Part shown: piece after piece, positions 39,276-42,693 of the stretch
Layout: each line of letters opens with the position of its first letter
How positions within the stretch are numbered: the stretch's first letter is position 1
NCBI GenBank assembly: GCA_041557595.1
Contig: JBFFGE010000002.1
Coordinates: 9,047 to 73,046, forward strand
Origin: Alphaproteobacteria bacterium
Lineage (GTDB): Bacteria > Pseudomonadota > Alphaproteobacteria > UBA8366
Reading direction: 5' to 3'
Length of the DNA stretch: 64,000 bases
Notes under the pieces: model-generated
What the model was told of the DNA's origin: nothing
The model's input: the letters and a program-made list of their open reading frames with translations, nothing else
Databases searched by the model: none
Made by a program: the position numbers and the translations under genes

Positions 39276-39381
39276 TGGACCATTTTTTGCCTAAGGTGGC
39301 TTATATGAAATGGTCTATCTCTTGGTTTCCTTCGCAAATACGTCGTCGCGAACCGTTTCGGTTCGCTCGGGATTTGCTCTA
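39276..39381 (-). repeat. intergenic repeat family 1, copy C
   Basis: The reverse complement aligns with copies A and B. Its first three nt (TAG) are the cupredoxin stop codon. It ends 22 nt before the start of the MlaC-like gene. Confidence 0.85.
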
Positions 39382-39729
39382 GTTGTTCCGGAGATCGACG
39401 CGCCCGGTCATGGAGGGATGGAAGATGCAGAAATACGCCTGCGAAAGACCTTCCGAGACGACCAGTTCCCATTGTCCGTTCGGGGCGATCGATCCGGAAT
39501 CCCAGCTTCGGTCCTTGGCCGTTGCGGTGTGGGGAACGAAATCCTTGTTCACCCAGACAATGGTGTCGCCGGGTTTGATCTTCTGATCCGGGGCTACGAA
39601 CTTGAATTTCTGGATGGCGATGACGATGCGGTTTCCCTCGGCTGCGAAGCCAGGGCCCGACGGATGAAAAGCGATTGTGGCGGCGAGTGCCGCCACAATC
39701 AGCTTCGGCGCAAGGATGCGACGGAACAT
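39379..39729 (-). CDS. cupredoxin (plastocyanin/amicyanin-like blue copper protein) with signal peptide
   Basis: The type-1 Cu ligand pattern is H (VPHTA)...C (YFC) xx H (FHP) xx M (SM). The product is 116 aa. Confidence 0.8.
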   Translation of the reverse strand: MFRRILAPKLIVAALAATIAFHPSGPGFAAEGNRIVIAIQKFKFVAPDQKIKPGDTIVWVNKDFVPHTATAKDRSWDSGSIAPNGQWELVVSEGLSQAYFCIFHPSMTGRVDLRNN

Positions 39730-39734
39730 CGCCG

Positions 39735-40265
39735 TCAGCTTCCGATCGCTGAGACCATATGCTCGGCGTGCTTTTCATGCGCCTTGAATATGATCAGTGC
39801 GTCCCGGAACAGGGCCTTGACCTCGGGGTTCTCGATGTTCGGGATAAACGTCTTCTCGACGAGGTTATTGACCGATTTATGGTAGGCAAATTCATTTTCC
39901 GCATAGCGGCGATCAAATTCCGCGCCGCTCAACCGGCTCATTTCCTCGACCAGCTTGTCGGAACCCGCGGTGAGTTGCTGGCTGAGAAAATTGTCCTGGG
40001 CCGAGGCCTTGAGTTTCTTCAACAGCACCAGCGCCCGCTCGTTGACCGCGCTGTGATCGCGGATCATGGTTTTCGCGAATTCGTGGATCGCCGGATTCTT
40101 GGATTTCGCCAGCGCGAGATAGGCATAGCGGATGTCGATCGAGTCGGCGGTGTACGCCACATGCGCGATTTCGAGATCGTTGAGTTCGGCGGGTGACTTC
40201 GCATCGGCGGTCACGGTCATGATCGCCAGCAGAGCCAAGGGGGCTACGAGGAACTTCTTCAACAT
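39735..40265 (-). CDS. DUF4142 domain protein with signal peptide
   Basis: The start was trimmed to MLKKFLVAPLALLAIMTVTADA (ATG at 40265), which follows an AGGAGA RBS. The body is a helical DUF4142-like repeat (DxxFxxxMIxDH...). Confidence 0.8.
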   Translation of the reverse strand: MLKKFLVAPLALLAIMTVTADAKSPAELNDLEIAHVAYTADSIDIRYAYLALAKSKNPAIHEFAKTMIRDHSAVNERALVLLKKLKASAQDNFLSQQLTAGSDKLVEEMSRLSGAEFDRRYAENEFAYHKSVNNLVEKTFIPNIENPEVKALFRDALIIFKAHEKHAEHMVSAIGS

Positions 40266-40295
40266 TGTATCGTCTCCTGTCATGGGATTGCGTTG

Positions 40296-40317
40296 CGACA
40301 GGGGGAATTCCCTGTCG
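40296..40317 (-). other. 8-bp GC-rich stem-loop in the YHS/DUF4142 intercistronic spacer
   Basis: On the plus strand the sequence is CGACAGGG-ggaatt-CCCTGTCG. Confidence 0.35.
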
Positions 40318-40333
40318 GTATTTCCGCCAGCTG

Positions 40334-40834
40334 TCAGCTGAGGTCGTTCGGGGTTTTGGTCGCGATTTTCGACCAGTTTCGGTCGGCTCTTTTGATGAAG
40401 CCGGGAATGTCCGACCGCCAGAGCTTCTGAACCTCTGGATTGAGGTTCAGGTAGAGTTTCCCGGCGACGATCCGCCATTGCTGCGGGTCGCCGTCAAACT
40501 TTGCACCGACGGCAACGCCATAGGCGCAATAGCCGCCGTATTGCGGCAGGTATTTTTCCGGATCGTCCGTGAAGGCCTTGAGGTGATCTTCGCTGGCGAA
40601 CCGGTAGGTTGCGTCGTTGTGAACGGCGGAGAATTTGGCACGGCCGATCGTCGGACGGCCTTTTTTGAAATAGGCGACGACGTCGTAGCCATGCACCGCG
40701 AGGCCGTATCCTTTCGCGGTCAAGCCGTACGAGACATTTGTGTCGGCCTTGGTGCCGGCAACGTTCGCCGCGACCAGGCCGGCAAACACCGTCAGCACGG
40801 TGAAGGCGGCGATGAAACTGCGAATGAGCGACAT
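40334..40834 (-). CDS. YHS domain-containing protein (Cys form of the YHS (seleno)protein family) with signal peptide
   Basis: The motifs GYDVVAYF, YRFASEDHLKAF and QYGGYCAYGVA are typical of this family. A GAAGGAAG RBS is present. Confidence 0.8.
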   Translation of the reverse strand: MSLIRSFIAAFTVLTVFAGLVAANVAGTKADTNVSYGLTAKGYGLAVHGYDVVAYFKKGRPTIGRAKFSAVHNDATYRFASEDHLKAFTDDPEKYLPQYGGYCAYGVAVGAKFDGDPQQWRIVAGKLYLNLNPEVQKLWRSDIPGFIKRADRNWSKIATKTPNDLS

Positions 40835-40873
40835 GAGGATCTTCCTTCTCTGGTGGGGTGTCGCCGCGCCGGC

Positions 40874-41161
40874 TTATGCGGCGTGCTGCGTTGCGGCCGG
40901 GTTCGCGTTGGGGCTAACGGCCATGGCGCCTGTGACAGCGTTTTCGGCAATGGCGCCGTCGCCGAATGTCGACAGCGCGTCGATCGCCGCGCGGATCATG
41001 CGCTTTTCGTTACGGATGACGATGTCGGGCGCCTGCATGCGGATGAGCCGCTTGAGCCGGTTGTTGCGGGTGATCACGCGGCGGTACAGATCCAGCCGAC
41101 CCATCGGGCGATCGATGCGGTGACGGGATTGGCTGGCGGTCCGGGTTGGATGTCGTGCCAT
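40874..41161 (-). CDS. 95-aa protein whose core is homologous to the RNA polymerase beta-prime clamp helices (sigma-docking coiled coil); function unknown
   Basis: The ATG at 41161 follows GGAGG with a 9-nt spacing, and the stop is TAA at 40874-40876. The core [40 protein letters not shown] matches my recollection of E. coli RpoC ([40 protein letters not shown]). Third-position GC is high, like the host genes. Confidence 0.7.
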
Positions 41162-41251
41162 GATCGATTTCCTCCGTCTGCTTGTCGGTTCGTGGTTTTC
41201 GTTACCGGCGGTGGTGCGTTTGGCCTTATGTCCGTGGCCGCCGGGGTGGAT

Positions 41252-41268
41252 CGACCGGTTACCGGTCG
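41252..41268. other. perfect 17-nt palindrome CGACCGGT-T-ACCGGTCG in a structured GC-rich intercistronic spacer
   Basis: The palindrome was read directly. An extra ACCGGTCG half-site lies at 41298-41305. Confidence 0.5.
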
Positions 41269-41318
41269 GGGCCGCTGCCGCCCGCTGCGACGCGGCAACC
41301 GGTCGACCCGGGGGAGGC

Positions 41319-41873
41319 TTAAGCGGCGAGCGGAACCGCGGCCGTGTCGACAACCGGGAAGTCGATGTCGGTGTCCACGATATGGTTGAAGTAGTTGGTG
41401 AAGAGGTTGGCGCCGATATGCGTCACGATCTCGACGATTTCGCCGTCGCTGAAGTTTGCGGCCCGCAGCGCGCCCATATCCGTGTCATCGATCCGGCCTC
41501 GCCGGTCGACCACCTTGCGGACGAAGGTCAGGGCCGCCTGTGTCGTGCCGTCCTGCGACTAACCGTGCAGATTGCGGCCGAGTTCCTGTTCATCGACGCC
41601 GGCGCCCTTGCCCATCAGGGTGTGCGCGGAGGCGCAATAGTTGCAGTTGTTGGCGCCGGCCACGGTCAGGGCGATCTGTTCCCGCAATTGCGGGCTCAGC
41701 TGGCCCTGCCCGAGCGCGGTATTGAGCGCGAGGTACCCCTCGAGCACTTTGGGAGACTGGGCGAAGGTCGCGAAGATGTTCGGGACGACACCGATCGCGG
41801 CTTTGACGCCATCCAATAATTCCTTGGCGCTGCCTGTGGCGGTCGCCGGGTCGACGGGTTTGATGCGGGGCAT
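41319..41873 (-). pseudogene. carboxymuconolactone decarboxylase (AhpD-like) family gene interrupted by a single in-frame TAG
   Basis: ORFs 41559-41873 and 41319-41513 are in the same frame, with starts 360 nt apart. Read-through gives ...EQELGRNLHG*SQDGTTQAALTFVRKVVDRRGRIDD..., a normal 184-aa CMD protein with the NCNYCASAH motif. Confidence 0.6.
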
Positions 41874-41941
41874 GGGGATTTTCCTTTCGGGTTCGATCTA
41901 GCGGCTGCGGGAAACAGGTCTGTCTCCCTATCGACCCAACA

Positions 41942-41960
41942 GGTATACTGATCGGTATCC
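41942..41960. promoter_or_regulatory. TetR-type operator candidate, site 1 (GGTATACTGATCGGTATCC)
   Basis: Site 1 shares the identical 16-mer ATACTGATCGGTATCC with site 2. It lies in the spacer and -10 region of a TTGCGA...TATACC promoter-like pair reading toward the AhpD-like operon. Confidence 0.55.
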
Positions 41961-42050
41961 TTTCGCAAGCCCAGCTACCGATAATTTTTGCAAGAAATCG
42001 TCACAAAATCGTGAGGAAACCCGGGAATTTTATTTAATTCAATGAAATTC

Positions 42051-42079
42051 TTGAAAATTCACCCATATTAAAGGATACT
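42051..42079 (+). promoter_or_regulatory. putative promoter of the TetR gene (TTGAAA-17 nt-GATACT)
   Basis: The hexamers were read directly. The -10 hexamer lies inside operator site 2. Confidence 0.35.
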
Positions 42080-42090
42080 GATCGGTATCC
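42073..42090. promoter_or_regulatory. TetR-type operator candidate, site 2 (GGATAC-TGATCG-GTATCC)
   Basis: This is an 18-bp inverted repeat (16 of 18 positions symmetric) ending 15 nt before the TetR ATG. Confidence 0.6.
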
Positions 42091-42105
42091 GATATTGAGG
42101 AAATC

Positions 42106-42693
42106 ATGTCTCTATCTGAACGGCGAGAACACCTGATCGACACGGCAATTCGGTTATTCGCCGAGCACGGCTATCATGCCACCGGCATCGACACGATCCT
42201 GAAGAGCGCTGGCGTCTCCAAGAAGACGCTGTATCGGCATTTCCGGTCGAAGGACGAGCTGATCCTTGCCGCCCTGCGCAAATATGACGGCCTGTTCCGG
42301 AACAGCTTCATGCGTCAGGTTGAAGAACAGGCAGCGACACCCCGCGACCGTTTGCTGGCGGTGTTCGATGTCGCCGAAGCCTGGTTCGGTCAAAGCAGCT
42401 TCTATGGATGCATGTTCATCAATGCGATCGGCGAGTACTCCGACGACGACACGCCGATCCGTCAGGTGTGCAAGGAGTTCAAGGCGCTGATGCGCTCTTA
42501 TATTCGTGACTTGTGCATACAGGCGGAAATCCCGGACGGCGCCCTGCTGGCCGAAGAACTGGCGCTTCTCCTCGAAGGCGCCATCGTCACCGCGCAGGTA
42601 TCGCAGGATCGACAGCGTGCGGCGAGGATAGCGAAGATCGCGGCCGGCGCATTGATCGAACGGGCGGACTCGGTATTGCCTGCCACAACGTAA
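42106..42693 (+). CDS. TetR/AcrR family transcriptional regulator
   Basis: The N-terminal HTH is [44 protein letters not shown]. The product is 195 aa. Confidence 0.9.

Follow-up and report, generated by a model that had tools for sequence, protein, structure and literature searches.

Why would an operon of secreted redox proteins carry a piece of RNA polymerase? This question is raised by a locus in the 64,000-nt stretch of alphaproteobacterial DNA analysed here (the window), in which an original prediction, made from the sequence, had placed a TetR gene opposite five tightly packed minus-strand genes, one of them encoding a β′-like protein of 95 aa.

A vertically inherited accessory operon

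The predicted gene inventory was borne out together with its coordinates. The TetR-family repressor gene (42106-42693, plus strand; 195 aa; Pfam TetR_N E=1.8e-19, TetR_C_13 E=1.4e-8) is separated by a control region of 232 nt from an AhpD/CMD-like gene on the minus strand (41319-41873; 184 codons with a CxxC core; Pfam CMD E=1.3e-12). The 95-aa small-protein gene (40874-41161, minus strand) follows, and downstream of it, on the same strand, lie genes for three secreted proteins: a member of the YHS domain-containing (seleno)protein family (40334-40834; NCBIfam NF041384, 154 bits at a cut-off of 70), present in its Cys form (GGYCAYG), a DUF4142 protein of 176 aa (39735-40265; Pfam PF13628 E=3.4e-32, 112 bits at a cut-off of 27), and an amicyanin-like cupredoxin of 116 aa (39379-39729). 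The intercistronic gaps of 39, 68 and 5 nt match exactly, and, on visual inspection of the translations, all three proteins assigned signal peptides have typical N-termini. The proposed redox and copper character of the locus likewise holds, given the NF041384 membership of the YHS protein, the AhpD-type CxxC core of the CMD-like gene, and the His/Cys/His/Met set of the cupredoxin (His66, Cys101, His104 and Met107, read from the sequence), whose matches to Pfam Copper-bind and NCBIfam amicyanin are weak and both under cut-off. The YHS gene evolves at dN/dS 0.10-0.14 relative to its relatives. For the suggested role of DUF4142 proteins in alphaproteobacterial stress regulons we found no support in the literature searched, where the papers that name DUF4142 give no function.

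The locus had also been described as A/T-rich and horizontally acquired. The first description applies in part: the control region is A/T-rich (GC 0.43), and the three distal genes (GC 0.56-0.59) lie below the window as a whole (0.63), but their codon usage does not deviate, with a GC3 of 0.73-0.77 that equals the background (0.73 ± 0.07). The GC dip therefore comes from amino-acid composition and not from codon usage. Horizontal acquisition finds no support either in this flank-like GC3 or in the position of the block, which occupies one constant housekeeping site in all relatives found (dapE-dapD / block / MlaC-glyoxalase-HAD-argB-engB-yidC; dS ~0.5). Synteny in related contigs further shows that the genes co-occur elsewhere, in several gene orders. 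The locus is a vertically inherited accessory operon, encoding three secreted proteins with two cytoplasmic genes ahead of them. In relatives, the MlaC gene closes the unit; here, this MlaC-family gene (38586-39254, minus strand; Pfam MlaC E=9.5e-40) is set apart from the cupredoxin gene by a dispersed intergenic repeat (39275-39383) of ~105 nt with two internal hairpins. The repeat had been noted as a boundary and is real; two further copies reside in the window (28752-28868 and 4092-4206), the three being 84-96% identical over matched segments. It contains the cupredoxin stop codon, and it is missing from the related contigs L001 and L002, in which the gene for a 124-aa cupredoxin runs 4 nt into MlaC.

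Probable divergent TetR control and a decaying AhpD-like gene

Control by the divergent TetR protein, as originally proposed, is plausible. Three related palindromes (GGAnACnGAnCnGTnTCC) are confined to the control region, against a chance expectation of zero, and relatives have conserved them too. O1 (GGATACCGATCAGTATCC; 42073-42090) overlaps the second (-10-type) hexamer of a promoter-like site of tetR (42051-42079); L001 and L002 retain the outer half-sites of this palindrome. O2 (41943-41960) overlaps the likely operon promoter, which we place there from the conserved hexamers GGCTTGC...GTATAC; a consensus scan gave no call at this position. O3 (GGAGACAGACCTGTTTCC; 41910-41927) lies 37-54 nt ahead of the CMD start codon and has changed hardly at all in L001 and L002. 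Both contigs also encode TetR orthologues in the same position (83-84% identity, dN/dS 0.13). The operon is thus probably under the control of the divergent repressor. Its layout resembles that of other TetR-type divergent units, in which the regulator gene faces its target operon, and the putative palindromic operators on both promoter regions imply autoregulation. What differs is the cargo: secreted redox/copper proteins and a clamp-helix gene rather than an efflux pump or a catabolic pathway.

The first gene of the operon carries an in-frame TAG (41559-41561), which is no assembly error, being present in all ten independent assemblies of the species. It stands in place of the CAG (Gln) codon found in relatives; one assembly (L020) has an additional stop in the gene. 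The intact orthologue matches NCBIfam ahpD_dom; in this species, the AhpD/CMD-like gene is a pseudogene. Just past its stop codon lies a conserved GC-rich hairpin (41248-41309, minus strand; 14-bp stem, RNAalifold -33.8 kcal/mol) without a U-tract. Five of its pairs are changed on both sides between two sub-clades, which, with only two independent lineages compared, lends modest support to conservation of the structure. The hairpin could serve in RNA processing or stability, or terminate transcription weakly.

A clamp-helix module under purifying selection

The 95-aa ORF is preceded by GGAGG 9 nt upstream of its ATG. Against Pfam RNA_pol_Rpb1_1 it scores below the gathering threshold (E=5e-5); a phmmer search of β′ chains in the PDB (E=1e-13) aligns its residues 24-68 with E. 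coli β′ 267-311 and Caulobacter β′ 269-312. Its core (40970-41092, minus strand; residues 24-64, corresponding to E. coli β′ 267-307) matches the clamp helices, with 67-71% identity over 41-45 residues and the best scores to alphaproteobacterial β′. AF2 predicts a helix-turn-helix hairpin (H22-41 and H46-64, pLDDT 79-90), which Foldseek superimposes on β′ in holoenzyme structures with an rmsd of 0.5-0.8 Å over 41-42 residues. The limits of β′ homology coincide with the borders of the clamp-helix structural module. In contrast to β′, the protein is free-standing and has no zinc-binding domain, lid, rudder, NADFDGD or other β′ elements; its tails come from two unrelated genes, and it is encoded among genes for secreted proteins.

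It is chiefly at the β′ clamp helices (β′-CH; E. coli RpoC ~260-309) that σ region 2.2 and the NGN domains of the NusG family dock onto RNA polymerase. In E. coli, the CH residues R278, R281, I291 and N294 form the σ hot spot, and the isolated B. subtilis CH domain (RpoC 220-315) binds full-length σA (PMC6719014). Binding of σR2 to β′-CH is likewise stated in PMC12000874, which cites Arthur 2000 and Young 2001 for β′ 260-309. The counterparts of the four hot-spot residues in the 95-aa protein are R35, R38, V48 and N51, all of them kept, and equivalents of R275, R278, R281, N294, E295 and A302 are present. Across 22 family members, R32, R35, R50, N51, E52 and R54 are invariant, as is the hairpin tip (A44, P45, I47) in the family.

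Selection acts on the same segment. Within the window clade, dN/dS is 0.12-0.27 in the clamp-helix core and 0.3-1.3 in the tails, and of the six possible reading frames of the core the annotated one is free of stops and shows the lowest ω. In the wider family, core ω is 0.16-0.56 (Fisher p 0.005-0.03 in 6/10 comparisons), and the AhpD-derived tail reaches ω > 1 with an oddly low dS. Purifying selection is confined to the clamp-helix part; H93 and A94, at least 90% conserved, stand out in an otherwise neutrally evolving tail. The Shine-Dalgarno sequence and ATG are invariant in four relatives, the upstream spacer being unconserved with indels of lengths not divisible by three, and the ORF itself is preserved among relatives despite a 7-codon in-frame indel. 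All 15 contigs read encode the identical 95-aa protein while the neighbouring CMD gene decays. We conclude that the ORF is very probably a real, selected gene. The original label of a β′ fragment understates the ORF: far from incidental, this is a selected mosaic gene holding exactly the clamp-helix module.

Mosaic origin and neighbourhood of the family

Together with its relatives, the gene forms a hitherto undescribed family. It counts at least 25 distinct sequences, with identities as low as ~45%, that keep ORF, start codon and C-terminal end; none of the libraries searched holds a description of the chimera. The family members very probably arose from three donors: a gene for a secreted protein in the neighbourhood gave its first ~30 codons, rpoC the clamp-helix segment, and an AhpD-like gene its last ~46 codons. 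The donors are most readily seen in full-length members: residues 73-118 of P0275 form an ungapped alignment with the final 46 residues of the CMD protein (63% identity, E=2e-18), and its residues 1-33 match the N-terminal end of a secreted protein of 126 aa whose gene adjoins the chimera of L018 (45% identity, E=1e-7). The window protein aligns via the family and has a 14-residue deletion in its tail. The CMD and 95-aa genes end alike in the window DNA, GCCGC(T/A)TAAGCC. Full-length members have AhpD-type helices (H78-87 and H89-100, pLDDT ~64); unlike AhpD/CMD proteins, the chimera has neither the CxxC core nor most of the fold, and the window clade has also lost the last AhpD helix.

The chimera adjoins DUF4142 and cupredoxin genes, and usually YHS too, in at least four arrangements: CMD - chimera - YHS - DUF4142 - cupredoxin in the window, L001 and L002; chimera - YHS - DUF4142 in L012 and L018, with cupredoxin next in L018; DUF4142 - cupredoxin - chimera - YHS in L013; and DUF4142 - cupredoxin - chimera in L009 and L011. 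The YHS gene is a clear member of NF041384, and related loci of that family have in common the 126-aa secreted protein, an FAD-dependent disulfide oxidoreductase and a DedA/VTT protein; many such neighbourhoods, however, are without the chimera (L014-L017), and the window YHS protein is the Cys and not the Sec form. The window-type motif was found in none of 185,579 species-representative genomes, and just one 50%-identity cluster among 1.84 billion representatives matched at full length.

Possible functions of the 95-aa protein

We tentatively propose, at somewhat less than even confidence, that the 95-aa protein works as a soluble decoy, drawing off a factor that would otherwise dock on the β′ clamp helices. 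The grounds are that clamp-helix fragments by themselves can bind σ region 2 in vitro, and that the contact residues are retained here. A σ factor would be the first candidate partner and NusG, or a NusG paralogue, the second; that σ specifically is the target seems doubtful to us. Upon release of TetR, the decoy would be produced along with the envelope proteins and could lower or re-partition holoenzyme formation. Such σ competition would be comparable to that by Rsd, but would operate via core-enzyme mimicry. The conserved C-terminal ...HAA could conceivably function as an ssrA-like ClpXP degron that makes the decoy short-lived, although we consider this rather unlikely.

Recombinant β′-CH fragments (E. 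coli β′ 260-309; B. subtilis RpoC 220-315) define a minimal σ-binding unit that is contained in the natural protein; they are laboratory constructs, whereas the 95-aa gene is natural and selected, with diverged non-contact positions. The proposed logic, a small protein competing at the σ-core interface, is also that of anti-σ factors, Rsd and PhyR/NepR. PhyR/NepR is a σ-mimicry partner switch of Alphaproteobacteria, and mimicry is thus used in this class. In contrast to these systems, the 95-aa protein would mimic the core side and has no adjacent σ gene, and anti-σ domains, Rsd and PhyR bear no sequence or fold relation to it. Nor does any σ, anti-σ or NusG gene nearby hint at a partner. Several points count against a decoy: constitutive sequestration of the housekeeping σ would be harmful, core constraint is far below that expected for rpoC itself, the neutral tails fit a young gene that may be drifting to loss, and the family is confined so far to metagenome contigs and MAGs of few lineages.

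The same observations bear on the possibility, which we regard as real though improbable, that the ORF is an evolutionary scar: illegitimate recombination would have joined three gene pieces into an ORF, perhaps translated, that does nothing in trans; youth, hitch-hiking with selected downstream genes, or occasional rpoC gene conversion would then explain why it looks conserved. Tails at ω ~1 or above, the narrow phyletic range, a core ω of up to 0.56 in some pairs, the truncated copy of the chimera in L010 and the decaying CMD gene next door in the same species all fit such an origin. It accounts poorly for the low core ω of the window clade with its minimum in the annotated frame, for the many diverged sequences that keep ORF, start codon and C-terminal end, and for survival of the chimera through at least four cluster rearrangements. 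Core synonymous divergence (0.27-0.57) is similar to that of neighbouring genes. Clade-specific substitutions, shared within clades, differ from β′, which argues against continuing gene conversion.

Were the partner NusG or one of its paralogues rather than σ, a decoy or adaptor would modulate elongation, termination or Rho coupling instead of initiation. The N-terminal (NGN) domains of NusG and RfaH bind these same clamp helices, and the invariant hairpin tip would suit such a partner; yet the invariant residues are those documented for σ binding, and the window holds no paralogue, the one weak tblastn match falling inside a histidine kinase gene. The observations as a whole fit either partner; we judge NusG quite unlikely. 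Very unlikely, in our view, is a role as a small, basic binder of nucleic acids or as an accessory subunit sitting on an AhpD-like oligomer via its AhpD-derived tail, with the hairpin as a generic scaffold. With 15 Arg and a net charge of ~+10, the protein is extremely basic, non-specific nucleic-acid binding is an alternative explanation for the conserved arginines, and full-length members keep two AhpD-type helices; however, the AhpD-derived tail is without purifying selection, and the window clade has kept the small gene after losing 14 residues of AhpD-type helix and with its CMD partner a pseudogene. A role in cis, whereby translation of the small ORF controls or couples YHS translation or protects the mRNA and the peptide is irrelevant, is highly unlikely: the chimera does lie 37-39 nt upstream of YHS in the window, L012, L013 and L018, with the conserved hairpin ahead of it, but a leader would not select a 41-residue hairpin sequence at so low an ω, and in L011 a different gene comes next, 196 nt beyond the chimera.

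If the 95-aa protein does act as a soluble decoy, it would be a natural and previously undescribed core-enzyme mimic of the sigma docking site.

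The 95-aa protein corresponds to the clamp helices of β′

The small gene embedded in the operon (40874-41161, minus strand; GGAGG 9 nt 5' of the ATG) encodes a 95-aa protein whose residues 24-68 align with β′ residues 267-311 of E. coli and 269-312 of Caulobacter (E ~1e-13). AF2 predicts a helical hairpin (helices at 22-41 and 46-64, pLDDT 79-90) with disordered tails, and Foldseek superposes 41-42 residues of this hairpin on β′ from many holoenzyme structures with deviations of 0.5-0.8 Å. The β′ homology coincides with the borders of one structural module, the clamp helices (β′-CH), a coiled coil that constitutes the binding site of σ region 2 (PMC12000874, PMC9598883). 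Full-length σA binds in vitro to a clamp-helix domain on its own, and the hot spot of this interaction is made up of R278, R281, I291, and N294 in E. coli numbering (PMC6719014). According to Arthur 2000 and Young 2001, as cited in PMC12000874, β′ 260-309 is a σ70-binding site and a β′ coiled coil makes σ70 bind the non-template strand.

In the 95-aa protein, the hairpin comprises residues 24-64 and retains the σ-contact residues R32, R35, R38, N51, E52, and A59; the hot-spot equivalents R35, R38, V48, and N51 are all kept. R32, E52, and A59 are the equivalents of R275, E295, and A302, which Arthur 2000 reportedly describes. Across 22 family members, R32, R35, R50, N51, E52, and R54 are invariant, while residues near the hairpin base vary. 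Although the coiled coil and its σ-contact residues are common to β′ and the 95-aa protein, the latter is not a full subunit (~1,400 aa): it scores 56 bits against a cut-off of 963 for NCBIfam rpoC_TIGR and 23 bits against 39.7 for Pfam RNA_pol_Rpb1_1, with only profile positions 237-275 matched. It also differs from anti-σ factors (class I ASD / ZAS), given that Pfam, NCBIfam, and PHROGs report β′ matches only and no anti-σ domain; moreover, it contains no cysteine, in contrast to the HxxxCxxC motif of ZAS proteins.

Selection acts on the clamp-helix core

Orthologues P0001-P0004 keep the ORF and display one 7-codon in-frame indel. The Shine-Dalgarno sequence and ATG are invariant, whereas the 157-nt upstream spacer is poorly conserved and carries 3-nt and 4-nt indels, which rules out an alternative 159-aa reading from a TTG at 41353. 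dN/dS is 0.13-0.26 in the 41-codon core (residues 24-64) as compared to 0.3-1.3 in both tails. The annotated frame has the lowest ω of all six frames and no stops, excluding selection on an antisense or shifted frame. A selected core between two neutral, donor-derived tails is expected if the clamp helices alone matter. Constraint on the core is moderate, with ω reaching 0.56 in some wider-family pairs. The small ORF shows no differences among the 15 contigs examined, while the adjacent AhpD/carboxymuconolactone decarboxylase (CMD)-like gene degenerates in the same genomes. Judged by these patterns, the 95-aa ORF appears to be a selected gene and not debris.

The AhpD-derived tail (~43 C-terminal codons) behaves differently in the chimeras of five rearranged loci (L009, L011, L012, L013, and L018), where its dN/dS is 1.2-2.6 between sub-clades. 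Synonymous divergence in these genes is unusually low in the AhpD-derived tail (0.08-0.25), as compared to 0.3-0.6 in the core and >1 in the N-tail. Diversifying selection, nucleotide-level constraint, and recombination are possible causes of the odd ω of this tail.

A mosaic family assembled from three gene fragments

A profile search of 1.84 billion representatives recovered one full-length cluster, a shortened copy (P0125, on contig L010), and P0251. Using P0251 as the query, at least 20 additional family members were obtained, which are 106-118 aa long (50-91% identity) and all share one architecture. In the family member P0275, the N-tail (1-33) matches the N-terminus of the 126-aa secreted protein adjoining the 112-aa chimera in L018 (45% identity, E=1e-7), and the C-tail (73-118) matches the end of the CMD protein at 63% identity, gapless to the last residue (E=2e-18); the middle part of the family corresponds to the clamp helices and is very close to alphaproteobacterial β′. 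The β′/CMD junction coincides with a stretch in which the two sequences locally resemble each other (ALFDNG in β′, ANFSDG in CMD), and the junction motif of the family reads …DALFDHGEIVEIIAHIG…. Aligned through the family, the window protein shows a 14-residue deletion that takes out an AhpD-type helix, and the 3' end of its gene is still CMD-like in DNA (GCCGC(T/A)TAAGCC).

Pfam, NCBIfam, and PHROGs hold no model for the mosaic family and return partial β′ matches only, and literature searches brought up no relevant report of a naturally occurring mimic or decoy of the clamp helices. Born of three gene fragments, the family is absent as a described entity from the libraries and papers searched. 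A scan of 185,579 species genomes with the window-clade motif gave two chance matches only (L004 and L005). In JGI metagenomes, the same motif retrieved L006, a contig identical to L003 from a related uncultured alphaproteobacterium, and one chance match (L007). The scanned motif is specific to the window clade, and the mosaic family has been seen in metagenomic data only. Three proteins with two clamp-helix stretches (P0121, P0122, and P0123) were discarded as duplicated real rpoC, most likely assembly artefacts. The shortened copy (L010:337-546) lacks the first clamp helix and lies directly against the end of an unrelated, oppositely oriented gene; it still ends in ...HHAG and is followed by the YHS gene.

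Phage and plasmid origins of the small gene were likewise rejected: PHROGs matches are restricted to a 1,216-aa β′-like family, and a plasmid collection yielded rpoC only. Five viral-labelled IMG/VR contigs (L030-L034) match the clamp-helix region alone (63-67% identity) and probably carry full β′ genes on host-derived or misclassified contigs.

An ordinary TetR-type operon of apparently vertical descent

The anatomy of the surrounding operon agrees with the original prediction. The TetR gene (42106-42693, plus strand) is divergent from five minus-strand genes: the CMD-like gene (41319-41873), interrupted in frame by a TAG at 41559-41561, the 95-aa ORF, and the genes for a YHS protein (40334-40834), a DUF4142 protein (39735-40265), and a cupredoxin (39379-39729). 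Gaps of 39, 68, and 5 nt were also confirmed, and the control region measures 232 nt. The TetR protein combines a helix-turn-helix with a C-terminal ligand-binding domain (Pfam TetR_N, 69.7 bits; TetR_C_13, 35.6 bits). The window contains three related palindromes of 18 bp (GGAnACnGAnCnGTnTCC), where chance would predict none, all of them at 41910-42090; they are conserved in the relatives L001 and L002, and one overlaps a promoter-like site of tetR. The locus reads as a normal divergent repressor unit.

The YHS protein belongs to NCBIfam NF041384, 'YHS domain-containing (seleno)protein', scoring 154.3 bits against a cut-off of 70 over model positions 2-113 of 113. In the cupredoxin sequence, the His/Cys-x2-His-x2-Met ligand pattern is of the amicyanin type (VPH...FCIFHPSM), and the protein falls below the profile cut-offs (Copper-bind, 19.6 against 21.2; amicyanin, 33.5 against 110). 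Apart from the small gene, the operon is ordinary and comprises TetR, the inactivated AhpD-like gene, and genes for secreted proteins of the YHS, DUF4142, and cupredoxin types. An Rfam scan of 38500-43000 revealed no riboswitch or known RNA, its one match (ALIL) being at chance level (E=0.33; 17 bits, gathering score 50). Directly 3' of the CMD stop codon (41248-41309, minus strand) lies a GC-rich hairpin that has a stem of 14 bp and no U-tract; it displays compensatory changes between two sub-clades and is a candidate terminator, processing site, or stabiliser.

The module had been proposed to be horizontally acquired, which its composition and position contradict. GC3 is 0.73-0.84 against a window background of 0.73 ± 0.07, and the genes occupy the same site in relatives. 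The reported A/T richness is real for overall GC, which falls to 0.43 in the control region and 0.56-0.59 across the three distal genes, but not for GC3, which equals the background, and the GC dip of the distal genes is therefore due to amino-acid composition. The composition check put forward with the prediction showed codon-position statistics that match the flanks, which argues against acquisition. Three contigs of related uncultured Alphaproteobacteria (L001, L002, and L003; DapD 96% identical, dS ~0.5) carry the same block between dapE-dapD and MlaC-glyoxalase-HAD-argB-engB-yidC, as in the window. Together, GC3 and synteny rule out recent horizontal transfer or a genomic island, and the operon appears to have been inherited vertically.

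Linkage to a secreted module and decay of the CMD gene

Synteny comparison also showed that the genes co-occur elsewhere, both in relatives and in rearranged loci. While the window clade has the order CMD - chimera - YHS - DUF4142 - cupredoxin, L012 and L018 carry chimera - YHS - DUF4142 (with cupredoxin next in L018), L013 carries DUF4142 - cupredoxin - chimera - YHS, and L009 and L011 carry DUF4142 - cupredoxin - chimera. The persistence of the chimera's linkage through these rearrangements speaks for a functional connection with the secreted module; other close YHS loci are without the chimera. The L018 unit is flanked not by TetR but by a gene for a regulator that, by eye and from a partial translation, looks membrane-anchored and ToxR-type, and genes for an FAD-dependent disulfide oxidoreductase and a DedA/VTT protein follow the unit.

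A wider YHS neighbourhood is common to L018:790-6653 and L015:4521-9552 and includes the 126-aa secreted protein, a small cupredoxin-like protein (by eye), an FAD-dependent pyridine-nucleotide disulfide oxidoreductase with CxxxxC, and a DedA/VTT membrane protein. The divergent gene in YHS loci encodes a large TPR protein (L014 and L015) or, by eye, a wHTH-plus-TM-like regulator (L018). These neighbourhoods hint at a broader envelope redox or chalcogen system.

The CMD gene has its domain and a CNYC motif (CxxC), yet its reading frame is broken by the TAG at codon 105. The TAG is present in all ten independent assemblies carrying the identical small ORF, whereas relatives have CAG (Gln) at this codon. 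A same-species assembly (L020:1789-2343, GCA_041573455.1) contains a second premature CMD stop besides the common TAG, which points to ongoing decay. The CAG in relatives and the second stop rule out pyrrolysine or read-through, and the gene is, by all appearances, dead in the window species.

A dispersed intergenic element of ~105 nt, present in three window copies (4092-4206, 28752-28868, and 39275-39383) that are 84-96% identical across matched segments, contains two internal hairpins (GACCATTT...AAATGGTC and GCGAACCGTTTCGGTTCGC) and resembles repeats of the REP or MITE type. At 39 kb, the element is inserted 3' of the cupredoxin gene and supplies its stop codon, shortening the protein to 116 aa from 124 aa in relatives; it also parts cupredoxin from MlaC, two genes that in relatives overlap by 4 nt. 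An AT-rich direct repeat of 50 nt (TATCTTTATAGAATCGATCAA...TTAATCGATTCCAATTAA), 90% identical between two distant intergenic sites (26318-26367 and 54977-55026), may represent a regulatory site common to both positions or a further family of small repeats. D5, a repeat at 55.5 kb considered as a second CMD-like copy, is a chance similarity within a prephenate-dehydratase-like gene.

Discussion

Our comparisons identify the embedded small gene as an apparently selected, free-standing version of the RNA polymerase element on which σ and NusG dock. Contact between σ and the clamp helices is described as the key interaction in bacterial holoenzyme formation and is being pursued as an antibiotic target (PMC6719014, PMC9598883). 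The 95-aa protein might be a soluble decoy for a clamp-helix partner, a role to which we would give somewhat less than an even chance. The first candidate for this partner would be σ, with NusG-type factors second. Within the window there are no σ, NusG, or rpoC genes, and a weak NusG match falls within a gene for a histidine kinase. Produced alongside the envelope proteins upon TetR release, the decoy would lower or re-partition holoenzyme formation. The C-terminal ...HAA is conserved (H93 and A94 at ≥90%) and inherited from the ...LAA end of CMD. We take this end to resemble an ssrA-type ClpXP degron (C-terminal ...AA-COOH), and such a putative degron would render the decoy transient. More doubtful is the complete scenario, in which a domesticated, short-lived clamp-helix copy, recently spliced from three unrelated genes, would sequester σ or NusG ('anti-σ by core mimicry') and be co-induced with an envelope redox and copper module on TetR release.

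Among the alternatives to a decoy, the small gene could be an evolutionary 'scar', which we consider only slightly less likely than the decoy. Nucleic-acid binding might be the function instead, and the charge of the protein (~+10) is in keeping with it. Gene conversion from resident rpoC might explain the conservation of the core, but clade-specific substitutions and a core dS resembling that of neighbouring genes argue against it.

Known σ regulators mimic or occlude σ, whereas the 95-aa protein would mimic the core enzyme. If the decoy reading is true, a natural protein consisting of the docking element alone would represent a new mode of regulation by σ competition and would offer a ready-made, evolution-tuned probe or inhibitor scaffold for the σ/β′ interface. 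Whatever its function, the family provides a clean and datable case of gene birth via three-way fragment fusion, with selection visible on one piece of the three.
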